Source: Candidatus Electronema aureum
Lineage (GTDB): Bacteria > Desulfobacterota > Desulfobulbia > Desulfobulbales > Desulfobulbaceae
DNA: 21,875 nt
Reading direction: 5' to 3'
Assembly (NCBI GenBank): GCA_004284765.1
Contig: NQJD01000040.1
Span: 1-21,875, forward strand
Position 1 is the stretch's first letter; every line of letters begins with the position of its first letter. The notes under the pieces were generated by a model, which ran no database searches, was not told the origin of the DNA, and was given only the letters and a program-made list of their open reading frames with translations. Made by a program: the position numbers and the translations under genes. Below are positions 5,312 to 21,875 of the stretch, piece after piece.

Positions 5312-5710
5312 TTAACGAACAAGCTCAAACAGCGCAAAGCGAGCTGCTTTCCTGTCAAAGGTCATGACGACTTCACAGCCCTGCGCTTTGGCAGCATGAG
5401 CAATTAACAGATCAGAAAGATCGTATTTGCTCTCCTGCGCGGCTTGGATGAAATGATGCAGAACTGGACGATGCTCAAAGTTCAGCACCGGCATCAGGAG
5501 CAACTCCCGCAGCGCATCTAATATCTCATGCCTCGGTATTGCATAGACTGATTCCAGCACCCAGATCAATTCCAAGATGACCAGCAAAGGAACAAAGAGT
5601 TCGCTCCGGGCTGCTTCCGCCTTCTTGAACAGGTCGTACACCTTCCTTGCCTGTGTCTCGTCATCACCAACAAGAAAACGGACAAGGATGTTTGTGTCAA
5701 TGCCTTTCAC
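5312..5710 (-). CDS. vapC: PIN-domain toxin, VapC family
   Basis: 132-aa ORF starting 'MKGIDTNILVR' (PIN Asp in DTN). Later acidic positions occur in 'LSDLLIA' and 'TFD'. It overlaps the upstream antitoxin gene by 4 nt. Confidence 0.85.
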   Translation of the reverse strand: MKGIDTNILVRFLVGDDETQARKVYDLFKKAEAARSELFVPLLVILELIWVLESVYAIPRHEILDALRELLLMPVLNFEHRPVLHHFIQAAQESKYDLSDLLIAHAAKAQGCEVVMTFDRKAARFALFELVR

Positions 5711-5955
5711 TTGAAGCGTTCCTTGACGCGCTTTTTCACAGCCTCATCCATCTCTGCCAAGGTTGCCGCTTGTCTGCCCGGCTTATGCAGTTTGCAGAAC
5801 ACCTCGTCAACCTTCTTGGCAACAGGTCTGATCACCGCCTCCTGGTTCTCGTTGAGAACGATTTCCAGTTTGTCGCCAGGACGCAGCTTCATTGCGTCTC
5901 TGATGTGTTTTGGGATCGTCATCTGCCCCTTGGCAGTAAGTGTTGACAGCAGCAT
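5707..5955 (-). CDS. vapB: AbrB/SpoVT-fold antitoxin, VapB family
   Basis: 82-aa ORF with 'LTAKGQMTIPKHIRDAMKLRPGDKLEIV', a looped-hinge-helix AbrB/MazE-type motif. It lies directly upstream of the PIN gene and overlaps it. Confidence 0.8.
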   Translation of the reverse strand: MLLSTLTAKGQMTIPKHIRDAMKLRPGDKLEIVLNENQEAVIRPVAKKVDEVFCKLHKPGRQAATLAEMDEAVKKRVKERFK

Positions 5956-6159: not shown

Positions 6160-6348
6160 CTATTCAATATTCCCTTTCCGCTGCACTCGTGCTTCGCAGT
6201 CTGCATCAATGTCCCATGCTCCACCGGTGTTGCCACGAAGATCATTGTCCTCGAAGGTGCCGCCTCCTTTGTCCAATACCGAAATACCCCCATAACCGTT
6301 CTTGGAGATACGGTCAGGGCGCGGCAAGGATGCAGCCGGTAGATCACC
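6160..6348 (-). pseudogene. C-terminal remnant of a right-handed parallel beta-helix (CASH-type) repeat protein
   Basis: My own translation of a minus-strand frame without a start codon gives 'GDLPAASLPRPDRISKNGYGGISVLDKGGGTFEDNDLRGNTGGAWDIDADCEARVQRKGNIE*'. The 'GI.V...G...ED N.L.GN..G' periodicity is typical of beta-helix repeats. No N-terminal part is present. Confidence 0.35.
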
Positions 6349-6361
6349 TCAATATTGCTCA

Positions 6362-7405
6362 TCACCCCTTCTTGCTGTGCAGGTCAAACGCCACCTCGTA
6401 GGACTTACCTTTCGCCAGCGCGGTCGCGGGCGGAACATACTTGAACAGCAACGCCGAGAACTCATACTCAAAATCCCCGACAAACTGCGGATCGTCATTG
6501 TTGACCGTAACTGTCCTGCCATTGACGCTGTGACTCGGCTGCGCGGCCTCGTGCCAATACTTGCTGATCACTCTGTCTGGGTAAAACGTCAACTGCCCTG
6601 TTTTCTGTCCATTCTGAAACTTCAGCGTGTCCGTCCGCGTTCGCTTAACCGTGCCGACCAGCCGGTACTCGCCGACCTTATATTCAATCTTGTCAAACAC
6701 CTCTCCGTCCGGGGGCTGGGCGAGGAAGTAGAACGGCTTGTTTTCCGTTTGCGTCCAGCCGCTGGTTCCATTTGTTTCCTCGTCCGGCTCCTGCACCCAG
6801 CCGGATGAGGAAGCTGCACCCGCTGCACTCTGCGGGTCGTTCTCAGGCTGCTTGCCCGCTGACTGCGCAGCAGCGGCGCGGGCAGCGTCAGCCTCGCTTC
6901 GCTCCAACGCCGCCACAATCTGCTCCGCTATCTTTGTAATAGCCTTGCGAAGCTGTGGCGAGGTAAATGGCTCATGGCGCAACTCCCTCCAGTCCGCATA
7001 CTGCCGGGCGGCGATAATCTGCGCCAGCGGGTCATGTTTCAGCTTCTCTTTGTCCTTCAGCACAGGACAGGTGGCATAATAGACCGGCAGAATCAAATCG
7101 CCTCGGCCCAGCTCCTCTTCCCGCTTGAGAAAACGCTCAAGCTCCGCACGGCAGGCGGTGCTTTTGAAGAATGCAGGCGTGATGATTGGTAGCAGAAAGG
7201 TGACGGCAGCAAGCGAGGTGTCCAGCCGCTCCTGCCACTGCTGGCCCCAGGCAATGTCCTTGCGGTCTTGAAAGATGTCGAACGCCTCGCCAGTCAGGAA
7301 ACGTACCTCGCCGCTCAAGCGTTCGCGGAACTGCGTCAAGTCCCCATAGTCATGCTGGTCGTTTAAATTCACATAGCTCAGAAAAGCAAGTGGTGTCCGG
7401 CTCAT
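6362..7405 (-). CDS. TIR-domain protein with low-complexity linker and unassigned beta-rich C-terminal domain
   Basis: 347-aa ORF with GGAGGA RBS 7 nt upstream. The N-terminal ~140 aa read as a TIR_2-type domain: 'LAFLSY....D', 'IFQDRKDIAWGQQW', 'LLPIITPAFFKSTACRAELERF'. An Ala/Ser/Gln-rich linker follows, then ~150 aa with no motif I recognise. Confidence 0.8.
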   Translation of the reverse strand: MSRTPLAFLSYVNLNDQHDYGDLTQFRERLSGEVRFLTGEAFDIFQDRKDIAWGQQWQERLDTSLAAVTFLLPIITPAFFKSTACRAELERFLKREEELGRGDLILPVYYATCPVLKDKEKLKHDPLAQIIAARQYADWRELRHEPFTSPQLRKAITKIAEQIVAALERSEADAARAAAAQSAGKQPENDPQSAAGAASSSGWVQEPDEETNGTSGWTQTENKPFYFLAQPPDGEVFDKIEYKVGEYRLVGTVKRTRTDTLKFQNGQKTGQLTFYPDRVISKYWHEAAQPSHSVNGRTVTVNNDDPQFVGDFEYEFSALLFKYVPPATALAKGKSYEVAFDLHSKKG

Positions 7406-7454
7406 CTCAACTTCCTCCGCAGCGGTGTTGGTTGTTTAGTCCTGCATCAGCCGT

Positions 7455-7483
7455 ATAATAACTGTGTTTCTGCCGCGCTGCAA
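7455..7483 (-). promoter_or_regulatory. Putative sigma70 promoter for the TIR gene
   Basis: On the minus strand: TTGCAG (7483-7478), 17-nt spacer, TATTAT (7460-7455). The same AT block reads TATAAT (7454-7459) on the plus strand with TTGTTT 16 nt upstream, so it may be bidirectional. Confidence 0.45.
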
Positions 7484-7508
7484 GCGGTTCAGATTGCGCT
7501 GCTGTTGG

Positions 7509-7623
7509 TGACAGCATGGTGTCATGATATGTGATAGCAGGCTGTCACTCTGAGCAACACTACGCTGTCACTTCCTGTGACACTATGCCGTCACCCTGAG
7601 TGACACTACGCTGTCACTGCACA
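7509..7623. repeat. Five head-to-tail 23-bp repeats, each with a GTGACA-N6-TGTCAC-type dyad
   Basis: Units read directly from the sequence: GACAGCATGGTGTCATGATATGT / GATAGCAGGCTGTCACTCTGAGC / AACACTACGCTGTCACTTCCTGT / GACACTATGCCGTCACCCTGAGT / GACACTACGCTGTCACTGCACAC. The period is exactly 23 bp and the array lies between divergent promoters. Confidence 0.85.
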
Positions 7624-7651
7624 CGCCACCGTAGTGGCACGACATGTCGTG
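7624..7651. promoter_or_regulatory. Two adjacent palindromes downstream of the repeat array
   Basis: GCCAC-CGTA-GTGGC (7624-7637) overlaps a perfect 16-bp palindrome GCACGACATGTCGTGC (7636-7651) that contains the same GACA/TGTC core. Confidence 0.6.
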
Positions 7652-7678
7652 CTCCTGCTCAAAAGGTCTGATAATCCT

Positions 7679-7707
7679 GTTGACAAATCATCTGGCGCGT
7701 CTTAGTT
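7679..7707 (+). promoter_or_regulatory. Putative sigma70 promoter for the HU-like/DUF4469-like gene
   Basis: TTGACA (7679-7684), 17-nt spacer, TAGTTT (7702-7707), about 60 nt upstream of the ATG at 7768. Confidence 0.4.
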
Positions 7708-7767
7708 TTGTCTTGATGCGCCACGACCTTCCTGCATCTCTTCCTTTCCTCTCACCGGAGAACAGTC

Positions 7768-8841
7768 ATGAGCATACAATATCGGATTGAACCGAATCCA
7801 CTCACCACGCCCCCATCCTACCGCATTCAAGCCGTGCCGCGCAACACCGCAGGCTATGCGGAGATGGCCGCTGACATCTCGTCGGCGCAGCCCATCTACA
7901 GTCCTGAGACCATCAGCAGCCTTGCCCCGCTGATCATGAAATGGATTCAGCAGCGGCTCATCAGCGGCGACAAAGTGACCTTGGAGGAGGCGTTCAGCTA
8001 CTATATCTCCTTCACCGGCAAGTTGGACAGCCCGGACGAGCCACTGCCAGAAGATGACGATATACTTCAGGTTAATGTGCGCGTGTCCCAGCCTTTTGTG
8101 AAAGAGATACGGCATCAGGCCAAACTTGAGCGGCTGCCCATGACCGAGAAGCTGCCCGTGATCACATCGACCGAGGACACCAAGCTCAAGCTGGCTGACG
8201 TGCTGTTCGCAGGTGGCGTGCTCAAGTTGACTGGCAGCAATCTCCTCTTTGATGAGAGCAGCCCGGACTGCGGTTGCGTGCTGGAAGGGACACGGAGCGG
8301 GCGGCAGAAGCAGAGCACCTACGCCTCGGTCGCCAACAGCGGCATACTGCTGGTGCCAGACATTCCTGTGCAGGATAATCCCTGGAATAACGAATACACG
8401 GTCACGCTCACCACCCAGTACAGCGAACACGGCACTCTGCGTAGCGGCACCAGCCGCCGGAAGCTGCGCTCGCCCCTGACCGTGCCGCTCTTCGGCCACC
8501 CGCATCCGCCAGAGACAGGGATACTGACCGGCAATGCCACTGCCCCGTATGTGAAGATCACTGGCGGCACGGTCTCAGCAGACGAAATGCTGCGCATTCA
8601 GGCGGTGATTGATTCCCGCAGCGGCCTGCTGCTGCTCAATTTGCTCGACATGGAAGAGGGCGGCAAGACAGGCGCGACTGTGACAGTCACCGCCAATGGG
8701 ACATACACCTTGGGCGGATTTGCAGGCTCGGCAGTGACCAGCTTAGAGCTGAAGGTGGAGAATCTTGCGGCGTTAGTCAGCCTGATCAGGAATAGCTATG
8801 CAGGCAGGATGGTGGATATTCTGGATATAAGTATGGCGTAA
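7768..8841 (+). CDS. HU-like (HU-HIG type) DNA-binding domain + DUF4469-like Ig-fold domain protein with ~110-aa unassigned C-terminal extension
   Basis: 357-aa ORF with GGAGA RBS. The N-terminus 'YRIEPNPLTTPPSYRIQAVPRNTAGYAEMAADIS....ETISSLAPLIMKWIQQRLISGDKVTLEEAFSYYISFTGKL' is followed by 'LPVITSTEDT...GGVLKLTGSNLLFDESSPDCGCVLE....ILLVPDIP....YTVTLTTQYS'. This matches my recollection of the Bacteroidota HU + DUF4469 architecture. I have not verified it by search. Confidence 0.6.
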   Translation: MSIQYRIEPNPLTTPPSYRIQAVPRNTAGYAEMAADISSAQPIYSPETISSLAPLIMKWIQQRLISGDKVTLEEAFSYYISFTGKLDSPDEPLPEDDDILQVNVRVSQPFVKEIRHQAKLERLPMTEKLPVITSTEDTKLKLADVLFAGGVLKLTGSNLLFDESSPDCGCVLEGTRSGRQKQSTYASVANSGILLVPDIPVQDNPWNNEYTVTLTTQYSEHGTLRSGTSRRKLRSPLTVPLFGHPHPPETGILTGNATAPYVKITGGTVSADEMLRIQAVIDSRSGLLLLNLLDMEEGGKTGATVTVTANGTYTLGGFAGSAVTSLELKVENLAALVSLIRNSYAGRMVDILDISMA

Positions 8842-15229: not shown

Positions 15230-15487
15230 ATGCTGGCAGGAACGAAAAAACGGCTGGTCATTGAACTCGACCCGCAAGAGCACGGAGCTATCAAAGCGCA
15301 AGCCCTGCGGCTCGGCATTTCTATGAAAGAGTATGTCTTGCGGCAGCTGCGCGACAGGCGGGAGAACCCAGTCTCGGATGATCTGACCGCTGCTCTTGCC
15401 GCTGCCCTTAACGAAGTGAAAGCGCACAAAGAGGGCAAGATGAACGCGCCGCCGGAAAGCGCGCGCGCTTTTTTCAGCAGACTTTGA
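15230..15487 (+). CDS. Ribbon-helix-helix (CopG/Arc-like) antitoxin
   Basis: AAGGAGG RBS (15217-15223), then ATG at 15230. 'KKRLVIELDPQEHGAIKAQALRLGISMKEYVLRQL' fits a beta-strand/helix/helix RHH pattern. The stop overlaps the toxin ATG as TGATG. Confidence 0.7.
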   Translation: MLAGTKKRLVIELDPQEHGAIKAQALRLGISMKEYVLRQLRDRRENPVSDDLTAALAAALNEVKAHKEGKMNAPPESARAFFSRL

Positions 15488-15819
15488 TGCGCGTTGTCAA
15501 CACCACCTTGAGCTTCCGCAAGGTTTTCCGCAAGTTCCTGAAGCCGTATCCGCATTTGCAAGAAGATTTCCTTCCGCTGCTGGAGCAGCTTGAACACGGC
15601 CCGCTGCCCGGCGTTCCTCTCGTTGGTTTTGCTGGAAAAATCTGGAAGGCCCGCCTTGCCTCGTCAGATCAGCGCAAAGGCAGAAGCGGCGGCTTCAGGC
15701 TGATCTATCTTACTGACGAGAAGGCGCAGGAGCTTTGGCTGCTGACGCTGTATGCAAAATCAGAGCAGACCGACATCCGCGCTGGCGAGATTCAGAAAAT
15801 TCTTGATTCGCTACCCTGA
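15487..15819 (+). CDS. RelE/ParE-superfamily toxin (HigB/RelE-like)
   Basis: 110-aa ORF. 'GKIWKARLASSDQRKGRSGGFRLIYL....LWLLTLYAKSEQTDI' matches the K(G/R)KSGG(Y/F)R(V/L)IY...YaKnE pattern of RelE-like addiction toxins. It is translationally coupled to the RHH gene. Confidence 0.75.
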   Translation: MRVVNTTLSFRKVFRKFLKPYPHLQEDFLPLLEQLEHGPLPGVPLVGFAGKIWKARLASSDQRKGRSGGFRLIYLTDEKAQELWLLTLYAKSEQTDIRAGEIQKILDSLP

Positions 15820-15888
15820 GTTGCAGTTGAGCAGCAGGGCAATTCCCCGCATGTTGACCATTTCAGTGCAAATGTTCCTTGTTGCAAC

Positions 15889-15969
15889 CTTCCCATGACC
15901 CAACGCAACATCCGCCTGCACGTCGCCTACGACGGCACAGACTTCTGCGGCTGCGGGCATACTCATTGA
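15889..15969 (+). pseudogene. Diverged 5' fragment of truA (includes core copy 2)
   Basis: 15889-15953 aligns by hand to 18025-18089 with 58/65 identities. It would encode MTQRNIRLHVAYDGTDFCG, compared with truA MSQRNIRLHIAYDGTGFCG. Homology then ends and a stop follows at 15967-15969. Confidence 0.8.
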
Positions 15970-15971
15970 CG

Positions 15972-16005
15972 AACAGCACTTTCTGCTGTTACTCTTGCAA
16001 GAGTA
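15972..16005. promoter_or_regulatory. Dyad symmetries upstream of brnT (candidate operator)
   Basis: AACAGCA-N5-TGCTGTT (15972-15990) abuts a perfect 16-bp palindrome TACTCTTGCAAGAGTA (15990-16005), 25 nt upstream of the brnT ATG. Confidence 0.5.
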
Positions 16006-16030
16006 AGATTGTTGTTTCTGCCGGGTGATT

Positions 16031-16327
16031 ATGAAACTTGTCTTTGAATGGAATGCGCAGAAGGCGCGGTCGAACGTGCAAAAGCACGGCATCAGCTTTG
16101 AGGAAGCCAAGACTGTCTTTGGTGATCCCTTACTTCTCACATATCCTGACGAGCTGCATTCGGAGAACGAGGAACGGTATATCAGCATAGGCCGATCTGG
16201 GTGCGGGCAGACTCTTCTTGTCGTGCATACCGAACAGGAGACCGAAAGAAAGCATGTAGTCCGCATCATCAGCAGTCGCAAAGCAACAAACCTTGAACGG
16301 GAAACGTATGAAAACGCAGAAGAGTAA
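16031..16327 (+). CDS. brnT: BrnT-family toxin (DUF497 ribonuclease)
   Basis: 'FEWNAQKARSNVQKHGISFEEAKTVFGDP', 'HSENEERYISIG' and '[16 protein letters not shown]' are hallmark BrnT/DUF497 motifs. I place the start at ATG 16031. Confidence 0.85.
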   Translation: MKLVFEWNAQKARSNVQKHGISFEEAKTVFGDPLLLTYPDELHSENEERYISIGRSGCGQTLLVVHTEQETERKHVVRIISSRKATNLERETYENAEE

Positions 16328-16583
16328 AACAGACCCGGACATGCTCCCGGAATACGATTTCAGCGGCAAAAAAGGTGTGCGCGGCAAGTATTATGATGCG
16401 TATCAGCAGGGTCATGCTGTCCGCGTGCGGCAGGAGGACGGAACTGTTATCACCCACTGTTTCACGCTGGAAGACGGAGCCGTGCTGCTGACACCGGACG
16501 TACGGGAGTATTTCCCTGACTCGGAGAGCGTCAACCGTGCCCTGCGCGGGCTGATTGCTCTGGTGCCGCATAAAGTGGTCTGA
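16308..16583 (+). CDS. BrnT-associated antitoxin (BrnA position; non-canonical, no obvious RHH)
   Basis: The gene overlaps the brnT 3' end. '[16 protein letters not shown]' and the C-terminal '[14 protein letters not shown]' are motifs I recognise from small antitoxin partners of DUF497 toxins. The start could be 16293, 16308 or 16341. Confidence 0.65.
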
Positions 16584-16645
16584 TATTATTCTGTTATGTA
16601 ACCTTGCATCAAACCCAGCCACCCTTGAACGAAGAGGCCGCACTC

Positions 16646-16876
16646 ATGCAGACAGCCAAGCTATTTGTCAACGGACGCAGTCAAGCCGTCAGACTGCCCA
16701 GAGGATTCAAATTCAAAGGAACAGATGTCTTTATTCAGAAAGTGGGTGATTCTGTCATTCTATTTCCAAAGGACAAGGTTTGGGAAACGTTCCTCAGCGG
16801 TCTCAACAGGTTCACAGACGACTTCATGGAAAATGGACGCGAGCAGCCTGAGATGCAGGAACGGGATGAGCTGTAA
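16646..16876 (+). CDS. vapB: VapB antitoxin (AbrB/SpoVT fold)
   Basis: '[41 protein letters not shown]' is the canonical VapB N-terminus. The stop overlaps the vapC ATG as TAATG. Confidence 0.85.
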
Positions 16877-17271
16877 TGTACCTTCTTGACACGAACACGT
16901 GCATCTTCATCAAGAACCGGAAGCCTGTTCATGTCCTCGAACGGCTCCGAACTTCCCTCGACAAGGGTGTCTTTTTGTCAAGTGTTTCAGTTGCTGAGAT
17001 GCAGTATGGAGTTTACAACAGCAGCAACATCGAAAAGAACAGAATTGCCCTGACAGAGTTTCTTGCTCCCTTTGAGATTCTCAACTTCGATGATGCGGAT
17101 GCGGAATTATTTGGCAGGCTGCGTGCTGACCTTAAAAGCAAGGGGACGATCATTGGGGCGTATGACATGCTGATTGCAGCGCAGGCACTCGCCCGCAACC
17201 TCATCTTAGTCACCAACAATACAGGCGAGTTCAAAAGAATTGCTGGCCTCAAGCTGGAAGACTGGAAATAA
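16876..17271 (+). CDS. vapC: VapC PIN-domain toxin (enterobacterial VapC/MvpT-like type)
   Basis: '[11 protein letters not shown]', 'SVAEMQYG', 'GAYDMLIAAQA' and 'LVTNNTGEFKRIAGLKLEDW' place all four PIN acidic positions in the expected context. Confidence 0.9.
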   Translation: MYLLDTNTCIFIKNRKPVHVLERLRTSLDKGVFLSSVSVAEMQYGVYNSSNIEKNRIALTEFLAPFEILNFDDADAELFGRLRADLKSKGTIIGAYDMLIAAQALARNLILVTNNTGEFKRIAGLKLEDWK

Positions 17272-21718: not shown

Positions 21719-21774
21719 TTGCCACTCCCATGATTAGCACCCAAACATGGGTAATGGTGAACCATGAGTGGCAA
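21719..21774 (-). other. Compact structured element in the putative 5' leader of the fusion gene
   Basis: A 9-bp outer stem TTGCCACTC (21719-21727) / GAGTGGCAA (21766-21774) encloses the hairpin ACCCA-AACA-TGGGT (21739-21752) and an alternative pairing CCCATG/CATGGG. It lies about 170-220 nt upstream of the ATG at 21552. Confidence 0.3.
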
Positions 21775-21875
21775 AGCGAACGGCTCCCTAAAAAACACAT
21801 TGAATTTACCATTAAAAACAATATAATATTGAAAAAGTTGACTTCCGACTTGGTCTCAGTTTTCAGAGGGCGAAT

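Follow-up and report, generated by a model that had tools for sequence, protein, structure and literature searches.

The bacterial effector DSR2, a SIR2 protein, is triggered by a phage tail tube protein (PMC11290490), and in the Schlafen protein pSlfn5 an Ig-like sensor binds a tail assembly chaperone (PMC13056530). We describe here a gene of the freshwater cable bacterium Candidatus Electronema aureum in a window of 21,875 nucleotides (nt) (by "the window" we mean the whole stretch of DNA that was analyzed, contig NQJD01000040.1 of assembly GCA_004284765.1), which encodes a TIR head fused to a domain taken from a phage tail module. By analogy, the proposed logic of this chimeric protein would be that of DSR2 and pSlfn5, with a conserved N-terminal effector, a variable beta-rich C-terminal sensor, and a trigger from tail assembly. 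It differs from both in that its effector is a TIR domain and its sensor is a recent copy of a phage gene, and it shares no sequence relationship with them. TRIMCyp, a fusion of TRIM5 and cyclophilin A in primates, offers a eukaryotic parallel that is likewise an analogy only: an N-terminal immune module was kept, the C-terminal recognition domain was replaced by a captured open reading frame (ORF), and the old domain was left as a downstream relic. TRIMCyp arose by retrotransposition, and its captured gene was a host cofactor, whereas that of the chimera is viral. TIR effectors whose C-terminal module can be exchanged are known, and the chimera is a variant of that kind whose new module is a recently captured phage tail-module protein.

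The minus-strand ORF at positions 6362 to 7405 was verified. Its product of 347 amino acids (aa) matches exactly the protein P0001 of Ca. Electronema aureum, and the gene is found at about 697.9 to 698.9 kb of the closed chromosome OW818638.1 (loci and proteins compared with the window are given here as L and P numbers). A conserved Shine-Dalgarno sequence, GGAGGA, lies upstream of the gene. In the protein, the motif FLSY starts at residue 8, DIAWGQQW at residue 50, FFKSTACRAELERF at residue 79, and FYFLAQ at residue 225. The gene and the remains directly downstream of it are made up as follows.

6362..7405, minus strand: the chimeric gene (TIR head, linker, and phage-derived domain), 347 aa, identical to P0001
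6902..7405, minus strand: TIR head, residues 1-168, with the TIR_2 match; codon of the candidate catalytic glutamate E88 at 7142-7144, from profile alignment to L6, AtTIR, and 7uxr
6821..6901, minus strand: Ala/Ser/Gln-rich linker, residues 169-195, a remnant of the family linker, shorter than in L005, with the phage junction at its end (...PQSAAG-AASSSGW, junction at the hyphen)
6362..6820, minus strand: phage-derived domain, predicted to be all-beta, residues 196-347 plus the stop codon, corresponding to codon ~17 to the stop of a ~167-aa phage tail-module gene
6312..6362, minus strand: nonfunctional fragment of the next phage gene, first 17 codons (MSNIEVIYRLHPCRALT), its ATG overlapping the chimera stop as in phages
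6160..6311, minus strand: beta-helix relic, last ~50 codons (RISKNGYGG...CEARVQRKGNIE and stop), matching the C-terminus of the intact proteins P0008 and P0057

A preliminary description, made from the sequence alone, had placed an Ala/Ser/Gln-rich linker behind the TIR domain, as borne out by residues 169-195, and had called the part that follows an unrecognized beta-rich domain. Residues 170-347 indeed had no match in Pfam, NCBIfam, PADLOC, or PHROGs, and the beta-rich character stood; the domain is, however, no bacterial orphan. Residues ~196-347 (152 residues) were over their whole length 64 to 77% identical to standalone proteins of 166 to 171 aa (P0121-P0134), whose genes are located at the distal end of phage tail modules, after a PhageMin_Tail tape-measure gene and a row of large unannotated genes. 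Directly upstream of the 167-aa phage gene, a ~690-aa protein with an N-terminal SPRY domain is encoded, and downstream follows a ~120-aa gene whose start overlaps the stop of the 167-aa gene. Two of the tail-module contigs are IMG/VR viral contigs. The chimera shares with the standalone phage proteins the same stop codon and next-gene overlap, lacks the first ~16 residues of the ~167-aa protein, and differs from them in being fused to a TIR head and in lying on a chromosome among housekeeping genes; instead of a tail block, only 17 codons of the following gene accompany it, and no other phage gene is nearby.

When 1.84 billion representative proteins were searched exhaustively with a profile, only 19 relatives came up, among them more distant standalone proteins of 165 to 173 aa and two proteins, P0141 (L014, 9001-11022) and P0145, in which the large upstream tail protein carries the domain as a C-terminal fusion; the gene order in the P0141 module is similar to that of other tail modules. 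These natural fusions suggest that attachment to the upstream tail protein is the normal working state of the 167-aa protein, which in the phage would probably dock on it. Hits to giant repetitive proteins, met in the search for other effector fusions, were rejected because they looked compositional. No PHROGs family was found for the 167-aa protein and its neighbors, none of 50,697 cultured-phage records matched the captured-domain family in a tblastn search, and Pfam and PDB searches of the phage tail proteins detected only the N-terminal SPRY domain of the ~690-aa protein. A scan of metagenomes for the phage added one phage contig only; one source run of the phage sequence comes from a study of Swedish waters.

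An AlphaFold2 model calculated from 16 close homologs was poor (pLDDT, the predicted local distance difference test score, of 45.6) and was not used. With distant homologs added, the model was a compact all-beta domain with a pLDDT of 92 and a predicted TM score of 0.82, even without the first strand of the phage protein, and the captured domain thus probably folds. Foldseek, which the preliminary description had suggested together with AlphaFold, gave no significant match in the PDB (best E value, 0.058). In BFVD, the best matches were two unnamed viral proteins of 169 to 171 aa (TM score, 0.71 to 0.76), followed at weak scores by tail-fiber, tailspike, and tip-attachment proteins. The model assigns a confidently predicted, new all-beta fold to an unannotated phage tail-module family. 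Kinship of the domain to the neighboring DUF4469/HU-like protein (see below) was rejected at an hhalign probability of 0.3%.

Both junctions of the captured fragment can be read from the sequence. The 5' junction lies in the family linker, where intact members read GGQSIGQG-KGAIGTQ and the chimeras PQS(I/A)AG-AASSSGW. Directly past the chimera stop, MSNIEVIYRLHPCRALT is the start of the next phage gene (MNNIEVVYRLPPCRALT... in L001, MSNIEVICRLYPCRALT... in L016), and the sequence then switches to RISKNGYGGISVLDKGGGTFEDNDLRGNTGGAWDIDADCEARVQRKGNIE and a stop codon, the C-terminal end of the family beta-helix (compare P0008 and P0057); this relic is 83.5% identical to the L007 paralog and 80% identical to L013. 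Because a junction in the linker is followed downstream by phage codons and then by a beta-helix tail, we conclude with high confidence that, in a TIR-beta-helix gene, a ~530-nt phage fragment took the place of the end of the linker and of almost the entire beta-helix. The fragment runs from codon ~17 of the ~167-aa phage gene to codon 17 of the next phage gene. It is in frame, and the TIR head therefore continues into the phage protein, now its C-terminal domain, and ends at the phage stop codon. The direction of transfer, from phage to chromosome, follows from the piece of a second phage gene that was carried over. What had been described as a decayed gene downstream (~6160-6362) is present and is actually the scar of this capture, composed of 17 phage-gene codons and the displaced beta-helix tail. 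The same two junctions were found in three other assemblies, L005 (GCA_976560315.1), L006 (an assembly from an independent read set), and L010 (a Joint Genome Institute metagenome), and these identical junctions in independent assemblies exclude an assembly artifact.

The N-terminus had been read as a TIR domain with a glutamate at the catalytic position, and the hidden Markov model (HMM) and structure-sequence checks agreed with both points. The motifs quoted for it are present, and Pfam TIR_2 (PF13676) matched residues 37-142 with 45.2 bits (E value, 1.6e-11) at a gathering cutoff of 28 bits; the family profile matches the TIR structures 7uxr, L6, and AtTIR. In alignments made both with the single sequence (phmmer) and with the family profile, E88 falls on the glutamate of the WCLxEL motif in flax L6 and Arabidopsis AtTIR and on the equivalent glutamate of the bacterial 7uxr. 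It is kept in all 120 of 120 relatives, and the CRxE motif of the head is (nearly) invariant across the family. The glutamate at this position is the catalytic residue of TIR enzymes that cleave nicotinamide adenine dinucleotide (NAD+). E88 supplies the glutamate that marks these NADases (WCLxEL in plants, WxxxE) and is a candidate catalytic residue; NAD+ cleavage is predicted from this alignment.

Beyond that, likeness to the TIR proteins of known systems was at the level of the TIR fold. The chimera scored 51 bits with FxsC_Nterm, 29 bits with Thoeris ThcB4, and 32.7 bits with the PADLOC candidate PDC-S66, far below the curated cutoffs of 130 for FxsC_Nterm and 220 for ThcB4. Neither FxsA/FxsB nor a radical-SAM gene neighbors it, as would be seen for FxsC (FxSxx-COOH) proteins, and no ThsA-type effector (SIR2, transmembrane, or Macro with SLOG) is adjacent, as would be seen for Thoeris. 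The protein has no STING, SAVED, or APAZ domain and the gene no adjacent CD-NTase or prokaryotic Argonaute (pAgo), setting it apart from the TIR effectors of CBASS and type III CRISPR (TIR-STING, TIR-SAVED) and from SPARTA (TIR-APAZ with pAgo). Among the neighbors we found no ThsA, SIR2, SLOG, STING, SAVED, or Argonaute partner, as the preliminary description had stated for ThsA-like, SIR2, SLOG, STING, CBASS, and Argonaute partners, and no PADLOC system, the only match there being to a generic methyltransferase domain.

The head has a large family of relatives: more than 860 proteins in the databases match it, with heads that are 47 to 92% identical over ~170 residues and tails that differ. 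The tails are mostly right-handed beta-helices (Beta_helix/NosD); the linker between head and beta-helix is of low complexity and in some members includes a transmembrane helix, and others carry WD40, NB-ARC, or tandem TIR heads. Four metagenomic proteins of ~540 aa (P0004, P0005, P0006, and P0015) have two tandem copies of the head followed by a third, different TIR domain. Each cable-bacterium genome (Electronema, Electrothrix) has several paralogs of the family, which also occurs in Cyanobacteria, Acidobacteria, Verrucomicrobia, and Alphaproteobacteria. Existing annotations name its members "right-handed parallel beta-helix repeat-containing protein" or "F-box protein 11," and no literature linking cable bacteria with TIR domains was found. 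By head and linker the chimera is a member of the cable-bacterial TIR-beta-helix family: its head is 92% identical to that of P0008 (Ca. Electronema sp. V4) and 47 to 92% identical to those of more than 100 members, its linker has the family motif, and it shares a divergent HU-HIG/DUF4469 neighbor and a 23-bp array with L013 and L017. Its tail departs from the family, with a phage-derived, predicted all-beta domain in place of the beta-helix, of which only the ~50 untranslated downstream codons are left.

The cassette is found in two different settings. L005 and L010 are syntenic, and both lie at the GatB-adjacent position occupied by an intact TIR-beta-helix gene in Electrothrix aestuarii (L018), whereas the window locus corresponds to the HU-HIG-adjacent loci L013 (Electronema sp. 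V4) and L017 (another genome), both with intact beta-helix genes. The cassette is thus present, with the same junctions, in two non-orthologous TIR paralogs, the second one in another organism, which indicates that it was moved between paralogs or genomes by homologous recombination, for which the TIR-linker region and the beta-helix relic served as homology arms. L005 and L010 have nearly identical cassettes (synonymous divergence [dS], 0.026) and very different heads (dS, 0.8). The head of the window gene has a partner on the same chromosome, in the following tract.

6858..8064, no strand: 1.2-kb tract near-identical to L007, covering the 5' end of the HU-like gene, the palindrome array, and the TIR head

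This tract (window 8064..6858, L007 9297-10548, ~677 kb apart) is 98 to 100% identical over 1.2 kb, with 0 mismatches in the first 485 nt of the TIR coding sequence, compared with only 83.5% identity in the 3' relics. The difference points to recent gene conversion between the paralogous loci, by which, to judge from these identities, the TIR head of the chimera was recently overwritten from the same-genome paralog. The L007 gene itself retains a transmembrane helix and the start of a beta-helix and is cut by an insertion sequence (IS) element. Whatever the function, the large, uncharacterized TIR family of the multicellular cable bacteria thus evolves by modular recombination: its head hardly varies, its tails are swapped, and loci 677 kb from each other undergo gene conversion.

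As to function, we tentatively propose, at a confidence somewhat short of even, that the chimera is a single-chain, NAD-degrading sensor-effector of abortive infection. Upon infection, the captured domain would attach to the multimeric ~690-aa tail protein or assemble together with it. This docking would cluster the TIR heads late in infection. TIR NADases are switched on by self-association, and E88-dependent NAD+ cleavage would then halt the infected cell before phage release.

The rival that survives best takes the chimera as a recombination scar without sensor function: illegitimate recombination would have destroyed a TIR-beta-helix gene, the read-through would have been tolerated and spread by gene conversion, and the product would now be decaying. 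We regard this as nearly as probable as the sensor-effector. An in-frame read-through after a random junction is a 1-in-3 chance. A number of observations speak for the scar or otherwise weigh against a sensor-effector, and we take them together here. The boundaries of the capture are not domain-precise, since ~16 N-terminal residues were lost and a piece of the next gene was gained, with relics left at the 3' end, and this imprecision makes the capture look accidental. The fusion is rare: there are only two intact independent copies, and no other effector fused to the domain was found in the exhaustive HMM search or in a profile word search. A search of GTDB representative genomes turned up no prophage with either the domain or the 690-aa protein. 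In L010, a 67-nt deletion at the end of the domain (~1128-1175) causes a frameshift and read-through into the relic, and compared with the other copies another 27 nt are missing, which points to decay of the chimera in this lineage. The IS-cut paralog in the same genome (P0007) shows that damaged copies are tolerated, and family members consisting of the TIR head alone or of a TIR head with a transmembrane helix are common. In the head, the position four before the catalytic glutamate, usually Trp in known NADase TIRs, is Ala84 (Ala in 97 of 120 family members) and thus lacks the aromatic residue expected for these enzymes; two other conserved positions are changed in the window protein specifically, N15 (Asp in 114 of 120) and A66 (Asp in 102 of 120). 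Finally, identity between the window and L005 is blocky, as listed here, and the last 25 codons of the two chimeras represent two allele types that also segregate among the phages.

7405-6902, TIR head: 57-90% identity
6822-6643, 5' two-fifths of the cassette: 90-95%
6522-6373, last third of the cassette: 67-77%
6347-6258, ~110 nt past the stop: 95-98%
6257-6110, relic tail: 50-62%

Against the scar stands the state of the gene. The ORF is open in two lineages, with 25% of the domain's third codon positions different between them, and in neutral simulations at the observed synonymous divergence both ORFs stayed open with P = 0.0004. The ratio of nonsynonymous to synonymous divergence (dN/dS) between the window and L005 was 0.165 (dS, 0.57). 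When changes were polarized with phage outgroups, 11 synonymous and 15 nonsynonymous changes fell on the window branch and 13 and 7 on the L005 branch, a depletion of nonsynonymous changes relative to the neutral expectation of ~78% on both (P = 0.016 and P = 4e-5, respectively). The promoter region, the ribosome-binding site, and the TIR head are pristine, with 0 mismatches to the paralog; the cassette has been kept at two different paralog loci; and the model shows a well-folded domain even in the absence of its first strand. The mosaic identity again tempers part of this, since a low dN/dS and the retained ORF could largely have been imported with phage alleles that were under selection in the phages.

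The mosaic has its own features. At window positions 6463-6474 (codons 310-313), 8 changes in 12 nt turn LTVT, present in all close homologs, into GDFE, and the G-D pair fits the pattern of distant phage homologs (xGDxSY), which suggests a micro-conversion from an unsampled phage allele. The simplest reading of the alignments would be repeated patch-wise exchange with phage alleles and beta-helix paralogs, from donors that were not sampled. The stretch 6258-6347 (the phage next-gene fragment and the start of the relic) is better conserved than the domain's third codon positions; an RNA element or terminator was considered there and rejected (z = -0.66, no Rfam match, no convincing terminator).

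A more far-reaching version of the sensor-effector proposal, which we consider rather unlikely, is that phage structural gene capture created a new immune receptor, in which the tail-module domain is an integrated bait that docks on the tail protein and so turns the TIR head on. Recombination with infecting phages would update the bait, and head and relic would let the cassette hop between TIR paralogs. A bait kept current in this manner would explain the two allele types in the last 25 codons and the GDFE patch.

It is improbable that the captured domain acts as a dominant-negative poison of assembly, competing with the 167-aa phage protein for its docking site and blocking tail or fiber maturation, with the TIR head as a cap or multimerizer and NAD+ cleavage unneeded. 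The domain reproduces a phage tail-module protein almost completely, the N-terminal strand that links it to the upstream protein in the fused versions is replaced by the TIR-linker, and eukaryotes have virus-derived dominant-negative restriction factors in Fv1 and Fv4; the TIR head, with E88, is instead so extremely conserved as to suggest selection on an enzymatic or signaling role, and the arguments from rarity and decay apply to a poison equally. A Thoeris-like generator, in which a signal of the cyclic ADP-ribose type, made by the head on sensing phage, would act on an effector whose gene lies elsewhere in the genome, is very improbable, for although the catalytic glutamate is present and there are weak partial matches (PADLOC ThsB1, 12.7 bits, besides that to the NCBIfam Thoeris type III model ThcB4), every model match is far under its family cutoff, and neither among the window neighbors nor at six related loci did we find ThsA, SLOG, Macro, or another receptor-effector gene.

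The preliminary description had listed a VapBC pair, a decayed gene, a repeat array, and an HU-like protein around the gene, all of which are present, and had read them as an accessory or defense island. That reading did not hold: the chimera sits between clpX/clpP/tig/dnaA and housekeeping genes, next to a single VapBC pair. One flank reads vapBC-clpX-clpP-tig-dnaA, with VapB/VapC at 5312-5955, and the other the HU-like gene followed by a methyltransferase, an ARMT1-like phosphatase, a PP-loop ATPase, and ribosomal protein genes. Two features adjoin the TIR gene on its upstream side.

7508..7617, no strand: five imperfect 18-bp palindromes (GTGACAGCGTAGTGTCAC type) with exact 23-bp spacing, in the divergent intergenic region upstream of the TIR gene
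7768..8841, plus strand: HU-HIG-like/DUF4469 (Ig-like) protein, 357 aa, assigned with Pfam, divergent from the TIR gene

The HU-like protein matched Pfam DUF4469 with 28.8 bits and HU-HIG with 19.1 bits, the latter under its cutoff. A 77%-identical HU-HIG/DUF4469 ortholog adjoins the intact TIR-beta-helix gene in L013, and L017 has the same arrangement. Altogether, a ~357-aa HU-HIG/DUF4469 gene lies divergent from a TIR gene in at least four loci with differing outer flanks: window 7768-8841 (plus strand), L013 6567-7637, L017 3560-4636, and, as a truncated copy, L007 9246-9593. HU-HIG proteins have been proposed to have a role in biological conflicts, and almost no conserved gene linkage has been reported for them (PMC5499826); since the pairing with TIR-beta-helix genes recurs all the same, the two may, by their arrangement, form a two-gene module.

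The palindrome array gave 8 matches, where 0.1 are expected by chance, and a period of 23 in Tandem Repeats Finder. Arrays of five or six imperfect 17- to 18-bp palindromes with a strict 23-bp period were found at window 7508-7617, L007 9788-9902, L013 7766-7897, L017 4766-4910, and L005 7055-7213, between the DUF4469/HU-HIG and TIR genes in four of these loci and downstream of the beta-helix relic in L005. Their half-sites differ between loci (GTGACA..TGTCAC versus GAGAC..GTCTC), and the period is constant; the arrays look like co-evolving, putative protein-binding sites. The comparison of orthologous neighborhoods and arrays proposed in the preliminary description showed that the HU-like gene and the array are kept with the ancestral TIR-beta-helix gene in other Electronema-like genomes. 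Gene order thus marks them as conserved companions of one TIR-beta-helix paralog lineage and not as specific to the chimera.

Elsewhere in the window, the two ends (1-126 and 21750-21875) are 100% identical to the ends of IS copies of the DDE_Tnp_1 family, several of which are present in the genome and which also flank or interrupt L007. A toxin-antitoxin cluster at ~15230-17271 comprises a ParD-like protein with a 110-aa partner, BrnT with its partner, and a PIN protein with a 76-aa partner; beside it lies a low-GC stretch at 14.0 to 15.5 kb (41 to 42% GC) with a 264-aa ORF without match.

The chimera may be only a recombination scar, or it may be a sensor of phages that was made from a part of one. 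It is in either case the product of a clean and unusual evolutionary event and, rare as the fusion is, yields a directly testable pair of effector and trigger. If it is functional, this pair is ready in the chimera and, from metagenomes, the ~690-aa tail protein of the phage, the chimera would parallel the integrated decoys of plant NLR immune receptors as well as TRIMCyp in primates, and prokaryotic immune sensors could arise by direct capture of a phage structural gene.

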